Source of the DNA: an uncultured Fibrobacterota bacterium | GTDB taxonomy: Bacteria; Fibrobacterota; Chitinivibrionia; Chitinivibrionales; JANQEN01 | Assembly: GCA_964543525.1 (NCBI GenBank) | Contig: CAZIYW010000057.1 | Span: forward strand, 1 to 34,163 | Direction: 5' to 3' | DNA: 34,163 bases | Shown: positions 20,121-33,670 of the stretch, one piece after another | Position numbering within the stretch: position 1 is the stretch's first letter | Layout: every line of letters starts with the position of its first letter | Notes under the pieces: model-generated | Seen by the model: the letters and a program-made list of their open reading frames with translations, nothing else | What the model was told of the DNA's origin: nothing | The model's database searches: none | Translations under genes and position numbers: made by a program

Positions 20121-21230
20121 TCAGAATTTTACTTCAGCACGTAAGGCATACATCAGAAACTGTCCGGTATTATTGTCCACTCCCTGTATGTAAATAATCG
20201 TATTAACATTCTGAAGAATGTTGTAATACCACTGCAGTATACCAATGGTAACTTCATGCTGGAAATCATAGATTGCATTTGCGGAGATATTCATAAGATC
20301 ATTAATAGTATATCTGACTGAGCCGAAGAGGTTGTGCTCTCCCCAGATACTGTTTTGCCAGTTATATTGTTTGTAAAGATATTCCGCAGTGAAATACCAT
20401 ATATCCTTGACAGAATAATCGGCGCCGATCATTCCTTCAAAGAATGCAATGGATGAGTCGGTGAGAATATGGCAGACAGCCTCACCATAGAAGCCGATTT
20501 CGATATCTCCCTTCCAGGTAAGGCCGATGACAGCTTCGTTTTCAAGATTCGTGCTGATACCTTTGTCCCGATACATACCGATGAGACTGAAATCGAAACT
20601 TGAGAATGTGGCAAACATTTTTACCGCAACGGAAAAACTTTCGTCAAGGAATGGTAATTCCGTTATAAGATCAAGGCCTGCAAGGTCGGAAAAAGGAATA
20701 CGTATCGAAACTATATCCGAACCACTTCTTCGGTAATTAATATCGGTCAACTCCACAGATGAAAAGACATCGACAGGGGAGAAGACAAAACCCTTACCAA
20801 AATTGATTATCTGGCGACCCATGGTTATATCTGCAAAGGGCAGGTATATTGATAAATACAGTTTCCTCACATCGAGTAATACCGGAGCATTGCCAAAGGA
20901 GAACAGCTCGAATAATTCACCGATGGATGAATCTGAATCAGAGGTGAAGTTTTCGGGAATATACCGTTCAATGGTCTTGCCGTATGGAACTACTATATCA
21001 AACAGGCCTTCCACTTTAGCATAGTCGCGGTTGGTGTTTTTCAGATTGAGTGAAAGAACACTCATACCGGCAAAATCAGCTTCGTCCTTTTTACTGCTGT
21101 TGTGCACCGTATGAAGCAGGCCGAGATCGGTATACATTGATCCGCGGAATTTGATGCCTGATTTCTGTTGTGCGTAGGTAGTAAGTGTACAAAATAGAAG
21201 TATAAATAATAATATCTGTAACTTTCTCAT
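20121..21230 (-). CDS. β-barrel outer membrane protein (uncharacterised family), OMP component of Lol-like module A
   Basis: Signal peptide MRKLQILLFILLFCTLTTYAQQ and a C-terminal F (…AEVKF). It is homologous to the module-B OMP: LPFADITMGRQIINFGKGFVFSPVDVF aligns with LPFTELIAGRQAIGWGSARIINPTDIL. The track ORF extends to 21275 (MRKRMRTIHIAEKII), but that extension lies inside the GA-rich arm of the intergenic repeat. The ATG at 21230 has an AGAGGAAGA RBS. Confidence 0.55.
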   Translation of the reverse strand: MRKLQILLFILLFCTLTTYAQQKSGIKFRGSMYTDLGLLHTVHNSSKKDEADFAGMSVLSLNLKNTNRDYAKVEGLFDIVVPYGKTIERYIPENFTSDSDSSIGELFELFSFGNAPVLLDVRKLYLSIYLPFADITMGRQIINFGKGFVFSPVDVFSSVELTDINYRRSGSDIVSIRIPFSDLAGLDLITELPFLDESFSVAVKMFATFSSFDFSLIGMYRDKGISTNLENEAVIGLTWKGDIEIGFYGEAVCHILTDSSIAFFEGMIGADYSVKDIWYFTAEYLYKQYNWQNSIWGEHNLFGSVRYTINDLMNISANAIYDFQHEVTIGILQWYYNILQNVNTIIYIQGVDNNTGQFLMYALRAEVKF

Positions 21231-21259
21231 AATAATCTTCTCTGCTATATGAATCGTCC

Positions 21260-21338
21260 TCATCCTCTTCCTCATCCTCCTCCTCCGCTCTTGCCTTTTT
21301 TTTAAAAGACGAGGAAGAGGATGAGAATGAGGAAGAGG
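21260..21338 (-). repeat. intergenic CT-rich/GA-rich stem-loop element, copy 1
   Basis: CTCATCCTCTTCCTC (21260-21274) is perfectly complementary to GAGGAAGAGGATGAG (21311-21325). There are additional GAGGAAGAGG/CCTC repeats. The loop contains TTTTTTTTAAAAGACGAGGA. The 16-nt core CCTCATCCTCTTCCTC and the AAGACGAGGA motif are shared with copy 2. Coordinates are ±1. Confidence 0.6.
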
Positions 21339-21345
21339 AAGATTG

Positions 21346-22089
21346 TTACTTCCTCAAATACCTCATACTAAACTTTCCCTTATCCATGGGCTTATCAAAG
21401 ACAATATCTTTCATGGTAAAAACGGTTTTACTGTTTTTCCGCAGTTTGTTTACCATTTCCACCTTTGTTGCAAATTGTCTCCCACCTATCTTTTTTGTTT
21501 CGAGCACATTAGAGACTTTGAGCAGCTTGCCGCTTTTTGCGTACATTTCCTCCTTCAGAGCCACAAAGGAATCTTTGGTTACCCACATTTTCCTTTTGTA
21601 ATAGGGTACATCCTTTACTTTCGCATCAAGAGTGATTACATAACAATTCTGCTCCTTAACCTTTTCTTCTCCTGTTAATGTAATTTTGTATTTCTCGGAA
21701 AGCTTGTCCGATTCAAGAGCGTCTTCATAAGAGACATCACTTCCCATCATACCCTCTTTGAGCATGTGGCCTGAGATTTTCACCACATCGTTTTCCTCCG
21801 GGAAATAGATCCAGAGGTTTTTCTCCAGCATAAGGTATTTTGTACCTTCATCTTCCGGGTTGGTAAACTCAACAATGGCTTTTGTCTTTTCACCGTCCAT
21901 TGCTTCAACCGTAAGATTTTTTATCCGGACTTTGTCATCGACATGAATTTCCATGGTGCCGGTGTACTTAATGGTTTTATACTCACGGTTATTATCCATT
22001 TTGGAAAGAATCTCTTCACCGGTAAGAGAATAGGTCAAGGTATTTGCCAACATAACTATTATGGACAGTGAAGGTAGAATCGCTTTCAT
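21346..22089 (-). CDS. LolA-fold periplasmic protein (outer-membrane lipoprotein-sorting/LolA-like family), module A
   Basis: ~250-aa secreted protein with signal peptide MKAILPSLSIIVMLANTLTYS and β-rich, K/E-rich composition. Length and architecture match the LolA_like family that accompanies LolCDE-like ABC/FtsX transporters. It is paralogous to the 31595..32365 gene; for example KNLWIYFPEENDVVKI aligns with DEMWNYLPKTNKVIKI. The start was moved to the ATG with an AAGGAG RBS. Confidence 0.55.
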   Translation of the reverse strand: MKAILPSLSIIVMLANTLTYSLTGEEILSKMDNNREYKTIKYTGTMEIHVDDKVRIKNLTVEAMDGEKTKAIVEFTNPEDEGTKYLMLEKNLWIYFPEENDVVKISGHMLKEGMMGSDVSYEDALESDKLSEKYKITLTGEEKVKEQNCYVITLDAKVKDVPYYKRKMWVTKDSFVALKEEMYAKSGKLLKVSNVLETKKIGGRQFATKVEMVNKLRKNSKTVFTMKDIVFDKPMDKGKFSMRYLRK

Positions 22090-22141
22090 CAGGTGCTCCT
22101 TTTTATCTCGTAGATACAAAGTTTAAATTATCTTCATCGTT

Positions 22142-22212
22142 CTCCTCCTCATCCTCTTCCTCTACTCTATTTTAAGACGAGGACGAAGGACGAGCACGAA
22201 GACGAGGAAGAT
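22142..22212 (-). repeat. intergenic CT-rich/GA-rich stem-loop element, copy 2
   Basis: CT-rich arm CTCCTCCTCATCCTCTTCCTCTACTC, then TATTTTAAGACGAGGACGAAGGACGAGCACGAAGACGAGGAAG. The arms are imperfectly complementary. It shares CCTCATCCTCTTCCTC and TTTTAAGACGAGGA with copy 1. It lies between the second FtsX gene and the LolA-like gene. Confidence 0.55.
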
Positions 22213-22238
22213 TTAAATACATTTATTTCAAGCATAAT

Positions 22239-23477
22239 TTACACACTCTTAATTGCATCGACTGCATTCATGCGAGACGCCCTCCATGAGGGTAATACTG
22301 ATACTACGGCAGATACGAATACCCCGATCAGCAGGATATTTATTGTGCTGCCCGGACTTATCTCGAAAAATATCCGCTGATCCATGGGGAAATTAAAAGA
22401 GCTCATCATAGCGGAAAAGTCAAGGCCGTTGATTGCAAAGTAAATGTTGAATATCATACCTATGGATATACCTGCCAGGCTGCCGATTAAACCGAGGACA
22501 ATACCTTCAAAGAGAAAGAGGTTCAACACTTCAAATCTGGAGATGCCCATGGACTTGAGGATGCCGATCTCCTTGCGGCGCTCCAGGACCACCATCATCA
22601 GGATATTGGTGATGATAAAGGCGCCCAGAAAGGCAATAAAAAAGTAAAAGTAATTATAAATAATAGTGGCCATATCGACCATAGTGGCCCATTCGCCATG
22701 TTCGGTCCAGGATACAACGGCCAGTTGGTCATCATTGAGCAAGGTCCGTATTTTTTCAGCAACATCAGTTGCTTTTTTGTAATCCTTAAGCATGATAATT
22801 ATCTGCTGGGTAGAGCCATCCATGCGCAGCAGCTTTTTAGCGTCTGTTAAAGGGATCTGGAAAAACTTATCATCAAGAATATTCAGGCCGGTTTCGAAAA
22901 TACCGACTATATTGAATTTGCGAAGGTGCAGCGCATAATCTGCTCCCCGGGTCATTACCTTCAGGACATCGCCAACCTTCAGATTAAGAGCGTCTGCAAT
23001 ACCGGCCCCTACAATTGTTTCCCGCTCATTCTGAATATATCTTCCCCCTTCCCGCAGCGAGTTCTGCAGCAGTAGCAGGTCTTTTTCAACCTCGGGGTCC
23101 CCGGCCAGGGCCGCGGCATATTTATTGTTTCCCTCGTTAGCCAGCAGTACGCCGAAATTGACCCGTTCAGTCACCTGCTCCAATCGCGGAGAGATGACAG
23201 GATCGGCTTTTATAGCAGCAATAATTTTTTCAGGCTCTGCGATATTCTCGGTAACCGGATAAAATTGCCGCTTTTCACGGAATTTTTTGGTAGTGATTCG
23301 GATATGTCCGGTCTCGTTCTTGGTGGAGTTCTTTACGATCGATTCAAGCATACCACCGGCGAAGGCGCGAAAAAAGGTTATACCTGCAATTGACAGAGCC
23401 ACTGATGTAAAAGCAAGGATGGAACGGCGCCGATTCCGCCAGATGTTACGGAAAGCCATCTTTAATATATATGTCAT
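22239..23477 (-). CDS. ABC transporter permease, FtsX/MacB/LolE-like (4 TM with large periplasmic domain), module A
   Basis: 412 aa, starting with the conserved FRNIWRNRRRS and a first TM. A ~230-aa periplasmic domain follows, then three C-terminal TM helices with the FtsX-family ending LPSWRASRMNAVDAIKS. Confidence 0.8.
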   Translation of the reverse strand: MTYILKMAFRNIWRNRRRSILAFTSVALSIAGITFFRAFAGGMLESIVKNSTKNETGHIRITTKKFREKRQFYPVTENIAEPEKIIAAIKADPVISPRLEQVTERVNFGVLLANEGNNKYAAALAGDPEVEKDLLLLQNSLREGGRYIQNERETIVGAGIADALNLKVGDVLKVMTRGADYALHLRKFNIVGIFETGLNILDDKFFQIPLTDAKKLLRMDGSTQQIIIMLKDYKKATDVAEKIRTLLNDDQLAVVSWTEHGEWATMVDMATIIYNYFYFFIAFLGAFIITNILMMVVLERRKEIGILKSMGISRFEVLNLFLFEGIVLGLIGSLAGISIGMIFNIYFAINGLDFSAMMSSFNFPMDQRIFFEISPGSTINILLIGVFVSAVVSVLPSWRASRMNAVDAIKSV

Positions 23478-23488
23478 TGCTAGCTCCT

Positions 23489-24748
23489 TTATATAAACCT
23501 TAACGCACTGGTTACTTCCATTTTGGCTGCTTTACGAGCCGGAGGAATGCTGGCGAGTAAGGCGGTGAGAATGCCAAAGAGAAAGACACCGATTATCAGA
23601 GGTATATTCCATTCCCCGTAAATGGTACCCCATACAGGAAAACCGGCTGTATCAATGTACATGTCTCCGTAAATCTTGTCCAAAGGCCAGCCATAGGTGG
23701 TTAAAATAATAACAGAGATAACGCCAAGAATGACACCTCCCAGGCTGCCCACAAAACCGATCATGATTCCTTCGCACATGAACATCCAGGTTATCTCTTT
23801 CCCGCCCATTCCCATGGCACGCAGAACACCTACCTCACGTATGCGCTCGTAGACACTCATGAGTACGGAGTTGACTATCCCTACTGCTGCGATGAGGAGA
23901 AACACGAGGGTCATACCCGCACCCCAGTTCTTTTTCCCTTTCACCAGCGCCAGGATACCCGCACCGAGTTGTTTAAAGGAATAGGCGCTCAGACCCGGTA
24001 GGTCCTTTTTTACCAGGTCCAGAACCTCCTCCATATCATCAAGCAGGTCATCGAAATTGATCCGGCGCTTAAGTTGCACGTTCATTTCGGTCACGGTATT
24101 CTCCAGGTCCAGAAAGCTGTTGGCCGCGTCAAAGGTAATAAATACGCCGCTTTTGTTCAGAGCCGGATCGGTAGTATTGAACAGGCCAACTACCTTGAAG
24201 TCGTCTGCATTGCGGCTTTCGTATTTTGTCAGGGCATACATGGTGATAAAACCGCCGGGTTCTACACCCATTTCCCGTGCCAGGTCCTTACCCAGAATGA
24301 TCTGCCGCTCGCTTTTTTCCGAAAAATAGTTCCCCACCAGATGCTCGATCAGTTTAAACACGGTTTTATCTCTATCTGGATCCACAACAGTCCCGATGAC
24401 GGGCATGGACTCCTCATAGTTGGAGAGCTCACCTAAAAACTTGGTACGGGGAGTGACACTTTTCACCCGGTCATGGGTAAGGAGTGTTTTTTCAATCCCG
24501 TCCAGGTCCTGCAGACCGTATTTAAGAGGATATGATTCCTTGTTCTCGTCATACTCTTTTGTATAGATCTGAACGGCTGATGTGGAGAGGTTGATCAGGT
24601 TATCCATAGAGCCCCGATCTAAACCGCTCATTATAGAATCCATGAAAATGTATATAAAAAGTCCGAACGATATGACAATACCGGTGAGGAAAGTCCGGCG
24701 TTTGTGCCGCAGCAGATTCCGGAAAGCTATTGTAATGATTGTTTTCAT
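23489..24748 (-). CDS. ABC transporter permease, FtsX/LolC-like, module A
   Basis: 419 aa with N-terminal AFRNLLRHKRRT, a large periplasmic domain and the C-terminal FtsX signature (IPPARKAAKMEVTSALRFI). Confidence 0.8.
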   Translation of the reverse strand: MKTIITIAFRNLLRHKRRTFLTGIVISFGLFIYIFMDSIMSGLDRGSMDNLINLSTSAVQIYTKEYDENKESYPLKYGLQDLDGIEKTLLTHDRVKSVTPRTKFLGELSNYEESMPVIGTVVDPDRDKTVFKLIEHLVGNYFSEKSERQIILGKDLAREMGVEPGGFITMYALTKYESRNADDFKVVGLFNTTDPALNKSGVFITFDAANSFLDLENTVTEMNVQLKRRINFDDLLDDMEEVLDLVKKDLPGLSAYSFKQLGAGILALVKGKKNWGAGMTLVFLLIAAVGIVNSVLMSVYERIREVGVLRAMGMGGKEITWMFMCEGIMIGFVGSLGGVILGVISVIILTTYGWPLDKIYGDMYIDTAGFPVWGTIYGEWNIPLIIGVFLFGILTALLASIPPARKAAKMEVTSALRFI

Positions 24749-24751
24749 AAT

Positions 24752-25438
24752 TTACTTCCTTTCATCGGATTTTACCGTCCCATCCCGCAGAACGATCTCT
24801 CGTTTGGCATGTTTCTGCATACGAGGATCGTGGGTGGAAAAGACAAAGGTGGTCTGCCGCTCCTGGTTTATTTTCTGCATGAGGGCGATTACCTCTTCAG
24901 CGGTTTCAGAATCAAGATTGGCCGTAGGCTCGTCAGCCAGAACAACGAGCGGTTTCTTGACAAGCGCCCGTGCAATGGCAACGCGCTGCTCCTGGCCGCC
25001 GGAAATTTCCCTGGGTAACCTGTTTTCCATACCCTTCAATCCGACCAGCTCAATTATTTCCAATGCCCTCTCAGCCATGTCCTGTTTTGAATGCTTTTTT
25101 TCGATGACAAGAGGGAGCTCGACATTTTCCTTGACAGTCAACACGGGAATCAGGTTATATGATTGAAAGATAAAAGCAATATTATCTTTTCTGTAATCTG
25201 AAAGGCCTTTTTCTTTCATTCTTCCCAGCTCTTTCCCGTTATATATGACACTGCCGCTTGTTGGCGTATCAAGGCAACCGGTGATATTGAGAAGTGTGGT
25301 CTTACCGCTTCCGGAAGGGCCGACAATAGAGAGAAACTCGCCTTTTTCAATAGTCAATGTCACTCCTCTCAGCGCATGTACCTCCTGATCACCTTTCTTA
25401 AACACTTTTTTTACATCTTTTAATTCCAGTACTGCCAT
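24752..25438 (-). CDS. ABC transporter ATP-binding protein, LolD/MacB-ATPase type (COG1136-like), module A
   Basis: Walker A GPSGSGKTT, Q-loop, signature ISGGQEQRVAIARAL, Walker B VVLADEPTANLD and H-loop STHD. 228 aa. There is a 3-nt gap to the downstream permease. Confidence 0.9.
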   Translation of the reverse strand: MAVLELKDVKKVFKKGDQEVHALRGVTLTIEKGEFLSIVGPSGSGKTTLLNITGCLDTPTSGSVIYNGKELGRMKEKGLSDYRKDNIAFIFQSYNLIPVLTVKENVELPLVIEKKHSKQDMAERALEIIELVGLKGMENRLPREISGGQEQRVAIARALVKKPLVVLADEPTANLDSETAEEVIALMQKINQERQTTFVFSTHDPRMQKHAKREIVLRDGTVKSDERK

Positions 25439-25476
25439 GGTATTATCCTTTGCCAGAGAAAAAGAATTTATCTGTA

Positions 25477-26436
25477 TTAAATGTTTATCCTGTCATCAAT
25501 AATGCCTTCACTGGTGGCCTTTTTAGACACTGCCGCGTATAAGGCTCTGTTCATCAAATGGGGCGTTTCCGAAGGCACTACTATCATGGAGCCTTTGTGC
25601 TTCACTGCATCAAGCAACATATTCAGTGATCGCAGCATCATGGCCTCTTCGTTACCTTTATAGCTCTCCGAAGCCTCAGCGTATTTTTTCGCGATTTCAA
25701 TCTCTGCAGAGCCCAGTATTATTCTGGCGTTTTTTTCCCGCTCCGACTGCGCCTCTTTACTGATGGCATCCTCAAGCTCTTTCGGCACAACAATATCTTT
25801 TATTTCCACCGAGAGAGCGGTTATGCCCCACGGATTGGTCTTGGCATCCAGAATTTTCTGCAGTTCCTCGCCGATTTCATCACGGTCGGTAAGCAGACGC
25901 GACAGGGTTGTTTTCCCGATAATATCCCGTAGCGCAGTTTTAGCGCTCAACGGCACTGCAGACTGATAATTTTCAACTTCGAGCTTTGCCTTTGCCGCAT
26001 CCCATATCATCCAGAATATTATTGCGTCAACATATATCGGCACGGCATCCCTGGTGAGAACTTTCTCGGCAGTAAAGTCTGTGACCGTGATACGACAATC
26101 TACATACGCATAGGGTATGTCTACCACCGGTATCAGAAAGAAGATGCCGGGCCCTCGTGTTTTATACAACCTGCCAAAGCGTAATACCGGTACGCGCTCC
26201 CACTCAAAGGCAATTCGAATGGAAATGCTCAGCAGTATAAAAACCACCGCAGTGATAACAATAATACTCCGTGGTACAGTGCCGGAAAAATCAAACAACA
26301 GAAACAAACCAATACCAATTAATAATAGAATTATATTCAATATATACCTGCGGAGAGCGAAAAGTTTTTTCCTCAGCATCCGGAACACGGGGTTATATTC
26401 CCTTGTTTCCTCATACCCGTTTGATTTTGTTTTCAT
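25477..26436 (-). CDS. SPFH/band-7 (stomatin/prohibitin-like) membrane protein
   Basis: N-terminal TM segments are followed by an SPFH-domain pattern (PVLRFGRLYKTRGPGIFFLIPVVD...TRDAVPIYVDAIIFWMIW) and a C-terminal coiled-coil-like A/E/K-rich region. It is translationally coupled to the upstream GntR gene, with a 3-nt gap. Confidence 0.75.
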   Translation of the reverse strand: MKTKSNGYEETREYNPVFRMLRKKLFALRRYILNIILLLIGIGLFLLFDFSGTVPRSIIVITAVVFILLSISIRIAFEWERVPVLRFGRLYKTRGPGIFFLIPVVDIPYAYVDCRITVTDFTAEKVLTRDAVPIYVDAIIFWMIWDAAKAKLEVENYQSAVPLSAKTALRDIIGKTTLSRLLTDRDEIGEELQKILDAKTNPWGITALSVEIKDIVVPKELEDAISKEAQSEREKNARIILGSAEIEIAKKYAEASESYKGNEEAMMLRSLNMLLDAVKHKGSMIVVPSETPHLMNRALYAAVSKKATSEGIIDDRINI

Positions 26437-26439
26437 CTA

Positions 26440-26841
26440 TCAGCTCCCTTTTTTGAGATTTCTGCGTTCTTTTTCCATTTTTTTCAGAGTGGCCAATGCC
26501 TCCTCTGTTTTAATTCCCAGAGTGGCAATTTCATTCAAAAAAGTACTGCAAAGCCGTTTTAGACCTTTTTGCTTTTCCTCCGGATCGATTGTGGATTCTT
26601 TCCCTGAAATAAACGTGCCTGTTCCCTGCTGCGTGTTTACAATACCGCGCAGTTCAAGCTCACTGTATGCTTTGGCAATGGTGTTGAGATTTACCTGCAG
26701 ATCAACTGCGAGTTGACGTACTGTGGGAAGCCTTTCACCCGGTTCAAGTATTGAGTTAACAACACCGTAGATTACCTGATTTACAATCTGCCGATAGTAC
26801 GGCACACCGCTTGAATTGTTCAAGGTGAATTTAAAAGCCAC
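26440..26841 (-). CDS. GntR family transcriptional regulator, short YtrA-like subfamily
   Basis: GntR-type wHTH motif (ERLPTVRQLAVDLQVNLNTIAKAYSELELRGIV) and a short ~60-aa C-terminal domain typical of YtrA-type regulators that control ABC transporter operons. It has a GTG start with a GGAGG RBS. It is the first gene of module A. Confidence 0.75.
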   Translation of the reverse strand: MAFKFTLNNSSGVPYYRQIVNQVIYGVVNSILEPGERLPTVRQLAVDLQVNLNTIAKAYSELELRGIVNTQQGTGTFISGKESTIDPEEKQKGLKRLCSTFLNEIATLGIKTEEALATLKKMEKERRNLKKGS

Positions 26842-26863
26842 CCTATGCCTCCATTGTTCTATT

Positions 26864-26916
26864 GTACTAGTCTAATAGTACAATAATATAATAGTACGTT
26901 TTGCGGCTTTTGTCAA
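26864..26916 (-). promoter_or_regulatory. σ70 promoter with overlapping palindromic operator, module A
   Basis: On the minus strand: TTGACA (26916-26911), a 17-nt spacer, then TATTAT (26893-26888). The palindrome TGTACTA-N6-TAGTACA (26864-26883), with a GT...AC core typical of GntR operators, overlaps the predicted +1 to +18 region. An extra half-site ATAGTAC lies at 26891-26897. Confidence 0.65.
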
Positions 26917-26934
26917 CACTTTTTTCCAACTTTT

Positions 26935-27180
26935 TTAGCCTTTGAACCAGATTTTCCAGAAATTCCCGGTCGGATTAACCGGACAGACTTTTTCACATAC
27001 AGAACAGAGTCTCTTTGCATAAATTGAGTGAAACAGCCCTATAACGCGAAAAAAGAGATGAGTAAAAGAGTTTTTTTTTCGCAGGCCGATTATTGCGACA
27101 ATACAGAATCCCAGATAGCTGAGCAATGCCAGGATACCTTCAAATTTATTCAAGCCGGAGGTTCTGTTATCCGGCTCCAT
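26935..27180 (-). CDS. hypothetical small membrane protein (doubtful)
   Basis: 81-aa ORF with one TM segment (ILALLSYLGFCIVAIIGL) and a CxxCxxxCP string. It sits in the inter-module region with no clear RBS. Confidence 0.15.
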   Translation of the reverse strand: MEPDNRTSGLNKFEGILALLSYLGFCIVAIIGLRKKNSFTHLFFRVIGLFHSIYAKRLCSVCEKVCPVNPTGNFWKIWFKG

Positions 27181-27193
27181 TATGTCTCCTTTT

Positions 27194-28426
27194 TTAAAAA
27201 TAAATCCTCAGGGATATATATCCTGCATCGGGATATATGCCGAATTCCGAATTGAATGCAAACGGGCTTTCAGCTTTTTTACCGAGTCCGATTATCGCTC
27301 CCAGTGAGATATAGATATCGCTTCTGATATTGTACTCCAGTTCCGGCAGCAGGCAGACTGAATTATCGGAGAAATTGTACAGGACCATAAAACTTCCCGG
27401 TAACAGCGGTGTTATCTCATATCGTCCGCCAAGGCCGCAGTAATGTTTTCCCAGAAGATAAACGGCACCTTCAGTATATGCACAGGTAGTGAGTTGATTC
27501 AGATACGAATCTGCATTATTTGAACCTATACTATTAAAATGATATTCAATATATCCGTAAAATTTTTCAGAGAAGTTATAGTCTGCGCCGAGGGAGAGCC
27601 TGAAATAGTCGTTATCATTTGAATGCTCTGTTTCGTTATCGAGAACATCCGTAAAGACATGGGCAGCTTCACACCAGATTCCGGCGCCACCGAGCGATCT
27701 GGCTATGTCGATACCGGATAGCAGGTTGCCCCGAAAACCGATAAACGGAAACGCAATGTCGGTTTCCAGGACATATATCTTTGTACGAAGGAAAAAGGCG
27801 CTGTTTTTATAATGGAATTCGTCACCGAATACATAGCCGATATCAATTTCATTGAGACTTTTAATGGGAAAGATCATCCGGACTGCGTCAATACCGTATC
27901 GTTCTTCCGTGTCAAGAGCGTTGAAACCGAAAGGGGTAAGGATGTCAGTGGGATTAATAATCCGGGCGCTTCCCCAGCCAATCGCCTGCCTTCCGGCAAT
28001 TAATTCGGTGAATGGCAGTTGGAAGCTAAATGAAAATCGGTCAAGATTATGATAGATGCTGAAATTCTCAATATCCTCTTTGTCGAATGGATATAATCGT
28101 TCTTTAAAATCAGCGGCACGATATACTGAGGGATTTGTTAACGAAAACAAGGCGTTGTATAGGAGCGATTGCTTCTTTTTTATCTCGGGAACCAGTTCAT
28201 AGGAGAGCTGAAGTCGAAATGTTGCTCCAGGCGAGAAGAGAATATTTGAACGCAGCCGGTTGGTTACATATCCTTCAGTATGTGACGCATTAAACAGAGA
28301 TGTTTTAAATGTAGGCGGCTCCAGGACAAGGAAGAAACTTTTATAACAGCCGGAAAAGTTAAAGGGATTACCTGCGTAAAGTATTGCATGGAAGAGAGAA
28401 ACAAAAAGGATTTTTTTCGCATGCAT
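27194..28426 (-). CDS. β-barrel outer membrane protein (uncharacterised family), OMP component of Lol-like module B
   Basis: Signal peptide MHAKKILFVSLFHAILYAG and a C-terminal F (…LRIYF). It is homologous to the module-A OMP. The track ORF (to 28486) would overlap the upstream ABC gene by 53 nt. The ATG at 28426 removes the overlap. Confidence 0.55.
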   Translation of the reverse strand: MHAKKILFVSLFHAILYAGNPFNFSGCYKSFFLVLEPPTFKTSLFNASHTEGYVTNRLRSNILFSPGATFRLQLSYELVPEIKKKQSLLYNALFSLTNPSVYRAADFKERLYPFDKEDIENFSIYHNLDRFSFSFQLPFTELIAGRQAIGWGSARIINPTDILTPFGFNALDTEERYGIDAVRMIFPIKSLNEIDIGYVFGDEFHYKNSAFFLRTKIYVLETDIAFPFIGFRGNLLSGIDIARSLGGAGIWCEAAHVFTDVLDNETEHSNDNDYFRLSLGADYNFSEKFYGYIEYHFNSIGSNNADSYLNQLTTCAYTEGAVYLLGKHYCGLGGRYEITPLLPGSFMVLYNFSDNSVCLLPELEYNIRSDIYISLGAIIGLGKKAESPFAFNSEFGIYPDAGYISLRIYF

Positions 28427-28433
28427 CAGGAAC

Positions 28434-29132
28434 TTATTCCTTTTTTTGATCGGAATCAATCTGACCGTCCCTGAGTACAACAACACGTTTTGCCCGTTCC
28501 ATTATTTTTGGATCATGGGTTGAAAACAGAAATGTCATACCGTTTTTCTCGTTCAGCTCATGCATCATATCCAGTAACGCGGTTCCCGTTTTTGAATCAA
28601 GGTTGGCGGTCGGTTCATCAGCTATTATTATTTGTGGATTGGAAACCATGGCACGGGCTATAGCAACCCGCTGCTGCTGCCCGCCCGAGAGCTGCGGTGG
28701 TTTTCTTTTCTCAAATCCCTTCAAACCAACCTTATCAAGAATCTCGCCAACCCGTCTGTGTCTTTCTCCGGCAGTTACTTTTTGCAGCATCATGATATAT
28801 TCAACATTTTCTTCAACGGTAAGCACCGGGATCAGATTGTAGGCCTGAAAGATAAAGCCGATATTATCCCTTCTGAAATCGGAGAGATTTTTACCGCTCA
28901 TACCGGATATATTTTGTCTGTTGAGAAATACAGCGCCCGAAGAAGGATTGTCAAGTCCTGCAATGATGTTCATCAGCGTTGTTTTTCCAGAGCCTGAGGG
29001 ACCCACAACTGCGGTAAATTCACCCCTGTTGACAGTAAAATCAATGCCCTTCAGAGCCTGAACAGCAACGGCTCCTGTGCCGTATGTTTTTTTAACGTTT
29101 TTTGTTTCAATAATAGCTTCAGTGTTCATCAT
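28434..29132 (-). CDS. ABC transporter ATP-binding protein, LolD/MacB-ATPase type, module B
   Basis: Walker A GPSGSGKTT, signature LSGGQQQRVAIARAM, Walker B IIADEPTANLD and H-loop STHD. Preceded by a GGAGGAAA RBS. Confidence 0.9.
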   Translation of the reverse strand: MMNTEAIIETKNVKKTYGTGAVAVQALKGIDFTVNRGEFTAVVGPSGSGKTTLMNIIAGLDNPSSGAVFLNRQNISGMSGKNLSDFRRDNIGFIFQAYNLIPVLTVEENVEYIMMLQKVTAGERHRRVGEILDKVGLKGFEKRKPPQLSGGQQQRVAIARAMVSNPQIIIADEPTANLDSKTGTALLDMMHELNEKNGMTFLFSTHDPKIMERAKRVVVLRDGQIDSDQKKE

Positions 29133-29140
29133 TTCCTCCG

Positions 29141-30364
29141 TTACATGCTTTTTCGCATAGCCTGAGCAGGTTTCAGTTTAGCGGCAAAGGTTGCAGGATA
29201 TATTCCTATTGCGGCAGTAAACAGCAATACCACAATCGGGTAAATAATATATTGATACAATCCGATAACCGGATATAATCTTCTCTGTACGGTAACCCCG
29301 CCGAGGTCAACTCCGTCAAAGGATATCCCGATTTTCATAAATATAAGGGTGACCAGTAATCCCAGAAGTATACCGATAACGCTGCTTATAATAGCCAGAG
29401 AACATGCTTCATAAAGAATCATTTTCCAGATATTGAATGAGCGTGTCCCAATTGCCTTTAAGACCCCGAATTCGAAGAAACGTTCATAGAGTGACATAAA
29501 CAGGGTATTCACAATACCAAAGACCACTACGCCGAATATGACGATTGCCATAAGTACAATCACATAATTGAACAGGTGGAGTGTCATATCAAGCTCCGGC
29601 ACAAGTTTCGGCCAGGGTTCTGCAGTCAATCCGTTCTTTGAATATTTTGCCCAAAGGGGATAGTCGGTGTGACTTGCAATCATTGCGTCTGTCAAATGGA
29701 TTACAATCTCATGAGATTCGTCCGCCTTTAATCCAAGAAGGGTCTGCAGTTTTCGAAAATGAACAAAGGCGATTTGCTTATCCATTTCATCCGCTTCAAA
29801 CTGATAGATTCCTCCCACTCTGAGCATTTCCTGGGCCAGTTCTCCGCTTTCCGCCATGGATACGGTAACGACAATCCTGTCGCCGGTCCGCACTTCAAGC
29901 TCCTCAGCGGTAGGTTTACCGATAAGAATAGATTGGGTATCATTCAGGTAGGATCCGCTTACCATTTTCTCATCTATTTCCGATACGGCTTTTTCCGTTA
30001 GGGGATCAATACCGCATATCATAAGGTGGCGTGAATTAACGGCTGAATTGATTAGCCCCTGTGTCATAACACGCTTTGAAACCTGGGCAACCTCCGGTTC
30101 TTTGCTGAGCTGCTGCAGAATCCTGTCTGTTTCGGGAATGGTCTTTTCAGGATCATAATTGTCGGTGAAACCTTCTGCGTGGATTTGAGCTTCTCCCAGG
30201 AAGTTATCGGTAACGGTTTCTATAATGTTTCTTTGCATACCCGCCATAAATGCGTCGGTGAATATCATACCGGCGAGGCCGACTCCTATAGCAATGCCGG
30301 TTATCACGGTACGCCGTGAATTTCTGAAAATATTTCGCCATGCTATTCTGATATACATATCCAT
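29141..30364 (-). CDS. ABC transporter permease, FtsX/LolC/E-like, module B
   Basis: 407 aa with N-terminal AWRNIFRNSRRT plus TM, a large periplasmic domain and a C-terminal FtsX signature (YPATFAAKLKPAQAMRKSM). Confidence 0.8.
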   Translation of the reverse strand: MDMYIRIAWRNIFRNSRRTVITGIAIGVGLAGMIFTDAFMAGMQRNIIETVTDNFLGEAQIHAEGFTDNYDPEKTIPETDRILQQLSKEPEVAQVSKRVMTQGLINSAVNSRHLMICGIDPLTEKAVSEIDEKMVSGSYLNDTQSILIGKPTAEELEVRTGDRIVVTVSMAESGELAQEMLRVGGIYQFEADEMDKQIAFVHFRKLQTLLGLKADESHEIVIHLTDAMIASHTDYPLWAKYSKNGLTAEPWPKLVPELDMTLHLFNYVIVLMAIVIFGVVVFGIVNTLFMSLYERFFEFGVLKAIGTRSFNIWKMILYEACSLAIISSVIGILLGLLVTLIFMKIGISFDGVDLGGVTVQRRLYPVIGLYQYIIYPIVVLLFTAAIGIYPATFAAKLKPAQAMRKSM

Positions 30365-30377
30365 ATACGATTCTCCT

Positions 30378-31592
30378 CTAATGTATCCGCATAGTTGCGG
30401 CCGGCTCGGTCCGTGCAGCCTTTATTGCAGGGAAAATGCTCACCAGCAGCGCCGAACCGAAAATAGTAAGCGCCGGAATATAAAAACTTTTCGCATTGAC
30501 TACAGTCCTGAAATGGGTAAATTCCATACCGCCGTAATAGTAAGGCTCGGGAACCTGTAATCCATGCAGAGAGAATAGATAGTTGATAATAAATGACAGT
30601 ACGATGCTCACGCCGATACTTAACAACGCAAGAATCCCCGTTTCATATAGTATGAGAAACAGAATCTGGGTCGGCCGTGTTCCAATTGCCTTTAAAATAC
30701 CATATTCTCTCTGCCGCTCGAGGACAGCCATAAGCACCGTGTTAAGTATGCTGATGGCGACAACTATCAAAAGAATAACAAGCATGATATACATACCGCC
30801 GATGTCCGCTTTCATCGATTTATAGAAGGTCCGGGCGATCTCCTGCCATGGCGCAACATCATAGGAGGAGCCAAGAACGGTCCTGAGTGTTTTACTCAAC
30901 GCCTGTGCCTCACTGCTCTTTTCTCCTATGACCACAATCTCGTGTATCTGGCCGTAAAGCACAAACAATTCCTGTGCGTCCTGCAGATGCATGTAGAGTA
31001 CAATGCGGTCGAATTCCCTGTTGCCGCTCTCCACAATGCCGGTGACGGTATACATGTCGTTTGCTATGGAGCCGTCCGCTGCCTGCGACACAATAACAAT
31101 CGTGTCACCGGGACTCGCTTTGAGATTTTTTGCAAGACCTTTCCCGAGCAGGACAGTATGAGCGGCTTTCCGGGTGAGGTGCTTTCCTGTAATAACCTTT
31201 TTGTTAAAATTCGTTGCACGGTTTTCCAGTTCCGGTTCTATTCCTACGATAACGGCAACATTACTCTCTTCCCGCACGGAAACAAGCCCTGATGCATAGA
31301 GGCGCGGGGCGAACTGTTCAACCTCCTTGACCCCGTCAATTTTCCTGAACAGTGAATCATACCCGCCGATTGTTTTGTATAGAGACTCTTTCTGCCGGTA
31401 TCCGGGAGCATGAACCTGTACATGGCCGATACTGTTTCGTGTGAACATATCGATGACGTCGCCATAAATACCATCGGCAATACCGAAACAGAATGCAGCA
31501 AGAACAAATCCGCCTATCATGGTAAGGGCAGTAAAGAGGGACCGACGTTTCTGGCGAAAAATATTCCGAAAGGCAATCTTTATTGTGAGCAT
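30378..31592 (-). CDS. ABC transporter permease, FtsX/LolC/E-like, module B
   Basis: 404 aa with N-terminal AFRNIFRQKRRS and a C-terminal FtsX signature (FPAIKAARTEPAATMRIH). Confidence 0.8.
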   Translation of the reverse strand: MLTIKIAFRNIFRQKRRSLFTALTMIGGFVLAAFCFGIADGIYGDVIDMFTRNSIGHVQVHAPGYRQKESLYKTIGGYDSLFRKIDGVKEVEQFAPRLYASGLVSVREESNVAVIVGIEPELENRATNFNKKVITGKHLTRKAAHTVLLGKGLAKNLKASPGDTIVIVSQAADGSIANDMYTVTGIVESGNREFDRIVLYMHLQDAQELFVLYGQIHEIVVIGEKSSEAQALSKTLRTVLGSSYDVAPWQEIARTFYKSMKADIGGMYIMLVILLIVVAISILNTVLMAVLERQREYGILKAIGTRPTQILFLILYETGILALLSIGVSIVLSFIINYLFSLHGLQVPEPYYYGGMEFTHFRTVVNAKSFYIPALTIFGSALLVSIFPAIKAARTEPAATMRIH

Positions 31593-31594
31593 CG

Positions 31595-32365
31595 CTATTC
31601 TCCTGTCACCGGTTCCCGCAGCTTGCGGAGTGAAAAGGTGTTGCTGTCAAGCCTGATATTATAATCAATGTCCAGGTACCGAAGCACTGTTTTATGTCCC
31701 TCTTTTGTTTTTGGAATCAGTGTTATAACGGTTGGTATCATTCGCTTATCAATGGTTTTTATTTCAGAGAAAAGCATCTCTCTGACCGGTTTTCCGTGTT
31801 CATCATAGTATTTCTCCCAGACCGGGAGCAGATCGCTTTTTCGTACGGCAATTTCTATTTTTCCCCAGACAATTGCTTTGCCCTTTTTGGGAATCCCTTT
31901 TACATAATGATAATCCTCCTTTTTTTCGGGAGGCTCAAAAATACTCATGTCATAATCATCGGTTAACGTATACTCCTTGACTAAATCATCATTGGTAAAA
32001 TCGGATCCCATCCAGGAGCTCATCATCATTGAAGGTGGTATTTTAATCACTTTATTTGTTTTGGGCAGATAGTTCCACATCTCGTCTTCGATCTTCAATG
32101 TGCCGACACCTCTTTCTTTTTTGGGTGCAAGAATTTTTACCAGCATTTTTTCCATACCCAGAGACCAGGTCTTCATCTTTAATGTCCGGGACCAGTGGGG
32201 AGTGGTAATTTCCATTTCTACAAGGGCATAACTGGCGGAACTTTTATAAAGCTCGTCAAAAGATACCACGATTTTCTTCAGTAATTCAGCGTCATTGCCC
32301 ATGCTGGTTGTAACAGTTAAGAAACATACTGTTAATCCGTATATGATAATGTTAAGACGTGCCAT
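31595..32365 (-). CDS. LolA-fold periplasmic protein (LolA-like family), module B
   Basis: 256 aa with a signal peptide (MARLNIIIYGLTVCFLTVTTSMG). It is paralogous to the module-A LolA-like protein. It has a GGGAGGAA RBS. It overlaps the downstream FtsX gene start by a few nt. Confidence 0.55.
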   Translation of the reverse strand: MARLNIIIYGLTVCFLTVTTSMGNDAELLKKIVVSFDELYKSSASYALVEMEITTPHWSRTLKMKTWSLGMEKMLVKILAPKKERGVGTLKIEDEMWNYLPKTNKVIKIPPSMMMSSWMGSDFTNDDLVKEYTLTDDYDMSIFEPPEKKEDYHYVKGIPKKGKAIVWGKIEIAVRKSDLLPVWEKYYDEHGKPVREMLFSEIKTIDKRMIPTVITLIPKTKEGHKTVLRYLDIDYNIRLDSNTFSLRKLREPVTGE

Positions 32366-32430
32366 GTGTTCCTCCCATCAGTGTTACTCGCCGCTTTTTA
32401 TAAGATTTCCTTTATTTTAAAGCATCTTTT

Positions 32431-32754
32431 TTATGTGACTTTTGAGGATGCAATAATACCCTCAAGCATTTTAATATACATAATAAAATCTTTCTTACCC
32501 AGTGAGGTAATATGATAGGTTGTTCTGGGTTTCCTGTTAACAAATTGTTTCTTTATAGTGATATATTTACACCCTTCCAGCATTTTCATATGCATACTGA
32601 GATTACCCCGGGTAAGTTCCAACATTTCGATAAGTTCACTGAAATCAGCCTTTTTATTTGCCATTAATACCGACATAATGCGCAGACGGGCCGGTACCTG
32701 GAATACCTTTTCCAGTTGAGTGATTTTATTTTTGATAATAGAATTTTTATTCAT
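32431..32754 (-). CDS. winged-helix transcriptional regulator, ArsR/SmtB-like (HTH_20-type)
   Basis: 107 aa. The recognition-helix region LTRGNLSMHMKMLEGCKYITIKKQFVNRKPRTTYHIT fits the ArsR-family pattern (L..S..S.H...L...G.I....G.....Y.IT). It lies between the membrane protein and module B. Confidence 0.55.
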   Translation of the reverse strand: MNKNSIIKNKITQLEKVFQVPARLRIMSVLMANKKADFSELIEMLELTRGNLSMHMKMLEGCKYITIKKQFVNRKPRTTYHITSLGKKDFIMYIKMLEGIIASSKVT

Positions 32755-32763
32755 ATATAAAAG

Positions 32764-33474
32764 CTATTCTTCTCTAGGTGGTGCTCCCTCTTTCCGATTA
32801 TCTGATGGGTTGAGCACTGCTATATGTTTTTCCCGTATCTGTTTATATCGCCCATGCATCAAGAGGCCAAGAATAACAGGTAGTACACCGAAAACACCGG
32901 CGACGAAAAACAGTTGCATATGTGACATAAAAAGCAGGCCTATGGCACCACAGGTCAGAAATATATAACCGACAATGGCAAAGCTTTTTTCTACATACAC
33001 GGCTCCGAGTGAGGTGAAAAGTACTGCTATCCAGATGACACACGCCGGGATGATAAATTCATAATGCCTCATTTTAATAAACAGGATGATAAAAATGGCG
33101 CACATGATTTCCAGAGGGATATCAATCTGGAGAAATGCTTTATTTGCTATATGCCTATAGTATGAAAAAAAGCCCATATTGTGTTTTTTTCCCTGTATAG
33201 CAAACATAATGAGTGTTACCAGTCCGATAAGGCATGATATGGATACCCACATGATTATCATGGCTTTTTTTATTGCGGCAGTAGGCCCGAAGGTGGCTAT
33301 AAAATGATAGTTCGCAATACAACCGATAATAACCACCAAACCGCTGATAGCGAGCAGGGTGCCGGTGCTGTATATGAAGTTGGTGAATATTTCGGCACCG
33401 GTTGCGCGATCAATGGTGTTTTTAATGGTGGAGAGGTCTTTCAGTGCTTTTTGCGGTGACAGTTTTTTTCCCAT
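32764..33474 (-). CDS. polytopic membrane protein of unknown function (≥5 TM)
   Basis: 236 aa with multiple hydrophobic helices and an AGGAG RBS. It is the first gene downstream of the module-B promoter and is followed after 10 nt by the wHTH regulator. Confidence 0.5.
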   Translation of the reverse strand: MGKKLSPQKALKDLSTIKNTIDRATGAEIFTNFIYSTGTLLAISGLVVIIGCIANYHFIATFGPTAAIKKAMIIMWVSISCLIGLVTLIMFAIQGKKHNMGFFSYYRHIANKAFLQIDIPLEIMCAIFIILFIKMRHYEFIIPACVIWIAVLFTSLGAVYVEKSFAIVGYIFLTCGAIGLLFMSHMQLFFVAGVFGVLPVILGLLMHGRYKQIREKHIAVLNPSDNRKEGAPPREE

Positions 33475-33493: not shown

Positions 33494-33565
33494 ACAAACT
33501 AATTAGAAGCACAAACAAGTTTGTCTCACAAACATAATAATACTAAATTTTTAAGTCATTGTCAA
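33494..33565 (-). promoter_or_regulatory. σ70 promoter with overlapping ACAAAC palindrome/repeat operator, module B
   Basis: On the minus strand: TTGACA (33565-33560), a 17-nt spacer, then TATTAT (33542-33537). The perfect palindrome ACAAAC-AA-GTTTGT (33511-33524) and further ACAAAC copies (33494-33499, 33528-33533) cover the predicted +1 to +20 region. Confidence 0.6.
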
Positions 33566-33628
33566 TAATTTTTATATAAAAATGAAAAAAGGAATAGTGT
33601 TGTAAAACTTTCTCTAATTGTAAATAAA

Positions 33629-33670
33629 CCGTCCCAAATCTGGGACGGTTGTCTCTGAATCGGGACGGTT
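33629..33670. repeat. GGGACGGT repeat array: 9-bp inverted repeat plus a third direct copy
   Basis: ACCGTCCCA-AATC-TGGGACGGT is a perfect 9-bp stem at 33629-33649. TCGGGACGGTT recurs at 33660-33670. It lies 50-90 nt upstream of the σ54-like -24 element. Confidence 0.5.

Follow-up and report, generated by a model that had tools for sequence, protein, structure and literature searches.

Two neighbouring gene sets on a contig from an uncultured Fibrobacterota bacterium (CAZIYW010000057.1; the window analysed here is its positions 1 to 34,163) each combine an ABC transporter with a LolA-like protein and an outer-membrane protein (OMP). They raise the question of whether this is a lipoprotein-sorting pathway of the LolCDE kind, a pump, an uptake route or a sensor, and why two such sets lie side by side.

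Gene content and control regions

All genes of the region 20,121–33,474 lie on the minus strand and form two modules (Table 1). Each contains, as had been predicted from the sequence, one ABC ATPase, two FtsX/MacB_PCD permeases, one LolA-like protein of family PF17131 and one beta-barrel OMP. The predicted pairwise homology of all five component types was also confirmed: between modules A and B the ATPases share 52% identity, the permeases 23–29%, the LolA-like proteins 29% and the OMPs 21% (E 4e-9), and the two OMP families matched with 99.6% probability (E 1e-24) when compared by profile. Both OMPs do end in phenylalanine, a residue that is invariant across their families. ATPase B has intact Walker A, signature, Walker B (DEPT) and H-loop motifs. 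The true start of the type B OMP is at MHAKK; a 430 aa ORF beginning with GTG overlaps the ATPase gene. No HlyD/MFP or TolC family protein was found among the scanned ORFs (the region's own, plus, from the remainder of the window, the longest ones that reach 100 aa or more), in agreement with the predicted lack of a MacA-like adaptor. The 81 aa ORF between the modules was found elsewhere only in a near-identical contig.

Table 1. Features of the two modules and their control regions, from high to low coordinates.
Module	Feature	Position	Strand	Basis
B	Perfect 10 bp hairpin, then T-rich tail; likely terminator of upstream gene	33627..33650	-	
B	Promoter-like site, TTGACA-17-TATTAT, 11/12	33537..33565	-	
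B	GTTTGT/ACAAAC inverted repeats, directly downstream of -10 box	33511..33533	-	
B	6-TM membrane protein, no Pfam family, paired with HTH_34 regulator	32764..33474	-	
B	HTH_34 winged-helix regulator (ArsR/PadR-like)	32431..32754	-	Pfam E 3.2e-26; HTH_5 1.5e-8
B	LolA-like periplasmic protein, type B, PF17131	31595..32365	-	Pfam 1.5e-48
B	Permease B1, FtsX + MacB_PCD, 4 TM, large periplasmic domain	30378..31592	-	Pfam, topology
B	Permease B2, FtsX + MacB_PCD	29141..30364	-	Pfam, topology
B	ABC ATPase B, ABC_tran	28434..29132	-	Pfam 2.6e-39
B	OMP type B, 410 aa, Phe at end, homologous to type A barrel	27194..28426	-	
	81 aa ORF between modules, one TM segment, Cys-rich tail, uncertain status	26935..27180	-	
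A	Promoter-like site, TTGACA-17-TATTAT, 11/12	26888..26916	-	
A	Palindrome ATTGTACTA-N6-TAGTACAAT, candidate GntR operator	26853..26892	-	
A	Short GntR regulator, 133 aa, YtrA-like by size	26440..26841	-	Pfam 1.9e-13
A	SPFH/Band 7 membrane protein, two N-terminal TM segments	25477..26436	-	Pfam 1.6e-33
A	ABC ATPase A, ABC_tran	24752..25438	-	Pfam
A	Permease A1, FtsX + MacB_PCD	23489..24748	-	Pfam, topology
A	Permease A2, FtsX + MacB_PCD	22239..23477	-	Pfam, topology
A	LolA-like periplasmic protein, type A, PF17131, 247 aa from ATG	21346..22089	-	Pfam 7.7e-54
A	OMP type A, predicted 18-strand beta-barrel, Phe at end	20121..21275	-	

Control elements are separate for the two modules, each with a promoter-like site, a candidate operator and a regulator set of its own. 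The set consists of the 6-TM protein and HTH_34 regulator in module B, and of the YtrA-like GntR regulator and SPFH protein in module A. The total number of promoter-like sites in the region does not exceed chance, and it is the position of these two that is suggestive. A regulator had been correctly foreseen in module B, but its family is HTH_34 rather than ArsR (HTH_5). The inverted repeats next to the -10 box are a candidate operator for this regulator, and the hairpin further upstream likely insulates operon B from the preceding gene. Weak phmmer matches link the 6-TM protein to ORFs upstream of HTH_34 genes in two other loci (L103, E 0.006; L111, E 0.06), and in a third (L134) a 224 aa protein of similar size, also lacking a Pfam family, precedes HTH_34. 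In module A, the motif ATTGTAnTA of the candidate GntR operator recurs upstream of the GntR gene in four other loci (L026, L032, L108 and L132), the same loci in which SPFH and GntR genes are found together, and this box is conserved across phyla.

This arrangement is reminiscent of the ytr operon of Bacillus subtilis, which is also headed by a short GntR regulator (YtrA) without an effector domain, carries an FtsX-type permease gene, and has a palindromic GT...AC operator overlapping the promoter; the YtrA assignment here is by size and operator type. Unlike the present bacterium, B. subtilis is monoderm, and so has neither the LolA-like carrier nor the OMP.

Conservation and divergence of the five-gene unit

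The five genes occur together, in a fixed order, in many phyla. Among loci recovered by OMP similarity and having enough flanking sequence, the exact order is present in 58 of 62 of type B and 14 of 18 of type A (72/80 together), with median intergenic gaps of 8–10 nt, and ABC-transporter genes adjoin the OMP gene in every one. Because this order recurs in so many independent loci, the arrangement is far beyond chance. Locus labels include Aminicenantes, Zixibacteria, Latescibacteria, KSB1, Ignavibacteria, Calditrichota, Poribacteria, Chrysiogenota, Omnitrophota and Spirochaetes, and homologues of the type A OMP are labelled Chitinivibrionales and Cloacimonadota. Literature searches yielded no functional study of the unit, consistent with its having been described as uncharacterised.

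The same data bear on the OMP. It could be an ordinary porin that lies in the operon by chance, the remaining genes specifying a MacB-like inner-membrane efflux pump and a periplasmic binding protein, and there are indeed many general porins among its structural matches, and weak Pfam matches to OMP_b-brl and Porin_4 in some family members. The conservation data already disfavour this reading, which we regard as barely credible: the OMP gene keeps its place and its short spacing in nearly all loci, never lacks adjoining transporter genes, and the protein co-diverges by type with the other four parts.

The original prediction took the two modules for duplicates, and this did not hold up. Each component is 38–67% identical to the same type in other phyla, as against 21–52% to its neighbour in the window, and all five co-diverge by type. 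The modules are two anciently separated system types and not the product of local or recent duplication.

Local regulators are the only neighbours that recur among the loci (TetR in 23, HTH_34 or GntR with SPFH in others), as is usual for inducible efflux systems. No biosynthetic genes are consistently linked among the neighbours, and gene context therefore gives no clue to the cargo.

Relationship of the parts to known proteins

In every permease TM1 is followed by a periplasmic domain of about 230 aa and then by TM2-4, and none is fused to an ATPase, so that they are LolC/LolE-like and not MacB fusions, as was proposed. The closest solved relatives are LolF (3e-25), LolE (1e-13), YtrF (6e-12) and LolC, while MacB reaches only 1e-7. 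The best NCBIfam models are lolCE for the permeases and LolD for the ATPases, but scores are 123–137 bits against a cut-off of 362, and 227–231 against 307.75, respectively. The likeness to LolCDE is one of architecture and not of orthology, and the label Lol-like stands in the former sense only.

The LolA-like protein is predicted to have a LolA-superfamily fold. The model of the type A carrier (pLDDT 87.7) gave TM scores of 0.76–0.85 to structures of LolA3, DUF1329 and NE2245 proteins (9tp6 for LolA3, 4z48 for DUF1329; 3buu and 3bk5), and the remaining top hits are all LolA, LolB, RseB or LprG. The match to canonical LolA is loose (TM 0.36–0.47). The signal peptides, including that of type B, have no conserved lipobox, and the proteins are therefore soluble. 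The best structural match is LolA3 of Bacteroidota (Porphyromonas gingivalis PGN0947, PDB 9tp6; Flavobacterium johnsoniae Fjoh_0605), with TM 0.79–0.82, 25% identity and a sequence match of E 1.4e-13; it is likewise soluble, with an SPI signal peptide. In contrast to the carriers described here, LolA3 has been studied as an orphan paralog that does not bind LolB and whose deletion gave no phenotype; the setting of its gene was left undiscussed.

The system may be compared with LolCDE-LolA-LolB (Escherichia coli; LolDF variants), which has the same separate ATPase, 4-TM FtsX-type permeases with large periplasmic domains, two distinct permease paralogs, and a soluble partner of LolA-superfamily fold. 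It differs in that the partner here belongs to PF17131 and not to the canonical LolA family, LolB is absent with an integral 18-strand barrel in the operon instead, and a local regulator governs the operon. A specialised lipoprotein-trafficking system could be built from such parts: the ABC transporter would extract certain lipoproteins, whose acyl chains would be carried by the LolA3-type protein, and the barrel would replace LolB as an insertase or surface flippase. The nearest solved permease relatives are lipoprotein transporters, which favours this reading, as do the top NCBIfam models, the two conserved permease paralogs, the carrier fold and the absence of a recognised LolB from many of these phyla. 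A similar mode of action has been proposed, computationally (2026), for the BBJ23-29 cluster of Borrelia, with a non-polar ligand as export cargo; this cluster differs in having a homodimeric permease, an Omp85-type barrel without POTRA domains rather than one of 18 strands, and two TPR proteins, and it is confined to Borrelia. We consider lipoprotein trafficking unlikely. All scores are far under the Lol equivalog cut-offs, LolA3 has neither the arginine of LolA nor the leucine of LolB, its deletion causes no gliding or T9SS defect, and surface lipoproteins still localise in a quintuple lolA/lolB mutant of F. johnsoniae. The TetR, HTH_34 and GntR regulators, the two copies in the window, and the taxonomic spread as known from the homologue search are also easier to reconcile with an inducible accessory system than with a housekeeping one.

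The type A carrier also scores above the cut-off of the MucB_RseB N-terminal model (28.6 against 22.3 bits), and RseB and MucB are among its structural hits. These matches, together with the SPFH scaffold tied to one subtype and the precedent of FtsEX, which belongs to the same ABC class but does not transport, could indicate a mechanotransmission device in which ATP switches a periplasmic partner that acts as a sensor of mislocalised lipid or as a gate for the barrel. Such a role is quite improbable, as the TM score to RseB is 0.3–0.37 compared with about 0.8 to the LolA3 and DUF1329 structures, neither a sigma or anti-sigma factor nor a hydrolase partner is conserved near the loci, and a conduit is the easier explanation for a dedicated barrel whose loop L3 is strongly conserved.

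The OMP model (18 strands, pLDDT 92) is equidistant from all known 18-strand families, its top structural neighbours being OccAB and AlgE, and no Pfam or NCBIfam family could be assigned, so that it does not fall into a well-characterised family unrelated to export. It matches uptake channels (Occ/OprD, ChiP, maltoporin, ScrY) as well as it does the exporter AlgE, which would count against an export machine. If the barrel admitted a hydrophobic nutrient, the LolA-like protein might ferry it inwards, and the ABC complex insert or import it. Known type VII ABC systems (MacB, LolCDE, FtsEX) act outwards from the cytoplasmic side, however, and we know of no type VII ABC importer. Mutants in DUF1302/DUF1329 genes cannot grow on fatty esters or monoterpenes, which would fit uptake, but the analogous RND partners are exporters and no catabolic genes are consistently linked among the neighbours of the loci, making uptake very improbable.

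A predicted route for hydrophobic cargo

We favour, with a little better than even confidence, the reading that each module specifies a complete machine of its own, under repressor control, by which a hydrophobic or amphipathic cargo is carried from the inner membrane or periplasm to the outer membrane or across it. The type VII ABC transporter, with its two FtsX-type permeases and separate ATPase, would serve as the motor, using ATP to expel cargo from the inner membrane's outer leaflet. The soluble LolA3-type carrier would take up the cargo in its hydrophobic groove and may then dock on the dedicated 18-strand barrel, which would let the cargo pass into the outer membrane or across it. The local switch would be GntR in module A, and HTH_34 with its membrane protein in module B. 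As A and B are anciently separated types, they probably differ in cargo or in the signals to which they respond. The original prediction had described extraction, shuttling and outer-membrane export of a hydrophobic cargo; the analysis bears out the parts and their folds and adds their strict joint inheritance and the layout of promoter-like sites and candidate operators, while these steps, their direction and the kind of cargo are what we infer from them. A lipid, lipopeptide, isoprenoid or xenobiotic would be a likelier cargo than bulk lipoproteins. The unit is a predicted mover of greasy cargo, conserved across many poorly studied phyla.

MacAB-TolC shares type VII mechanotransmission and the MacB_PCD and FtsX domains, but the modules have no ATPase-permease fusion or membrane-fusion adaptor, no TolC-type channel occurs among the scanned ORFs, and MacB is a far weaker sequence match to the permeases than are the Lol permeases. 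By analogy, the proposed export machine appears best read as a parallel of the proteobacterial DUF1302/DUF1329/BNR/RND clusters (AmeABCD of Castellaniella, Sama_1588-1591, PP_0765/0766), with an ABC motor in place of the RND motor. Those clusters, the orphan LolA3 and BBJ23-29 are design precedents that were absent from the original prediction. The DUF1302/DUF1329 clusters also pair a LolA-superfamily periplasmic protein with an 18-strand barrel (neighbours OccAB and AlgE) and encode an inner-membrane exporter alongside, and 4z48, a top carrier match, was deposited as a DUF1329 protein. Direct sequence signals are weak: the type A carrier scores 22.7 bits with DUF1329, under the cut-off of 23.1, and DUF1302 is detected in 13/49 type A OMPs (best E 0.0027) and 1/46 of type B, all short of the Pfam threshold, a faint link that would weigh against the export machine. 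Further differences are the ATP-driven type VII ABC motor as opposed to a proton-driven RND/MMPL pump, the absence of a BNR protein here, and the smaller barrel (about 370–410 aa, compared with about 600 aa for AmeA) and carrier (about 245 aa, compared with about 450 aa for AmeB). DUF1302, DUF1329 and RND pump genes have been reported to be cofit, with proposed roles in export of a cell-wall component or in monoterpene efflux, and a DUF1302-DUF1329 complex was predicted by AlphaFold-Multimer with ipTM 0.84.

A further analogue is a P. gingivalis operon for TetR, MMPL, 'OM lipoprotein-sorting protein' (PG1179) and a hypothetical protein, in which PG1179 may be LolA3. The operon was induced 13–136-fold on iron depletion, and strongly under iron or haem limitation.

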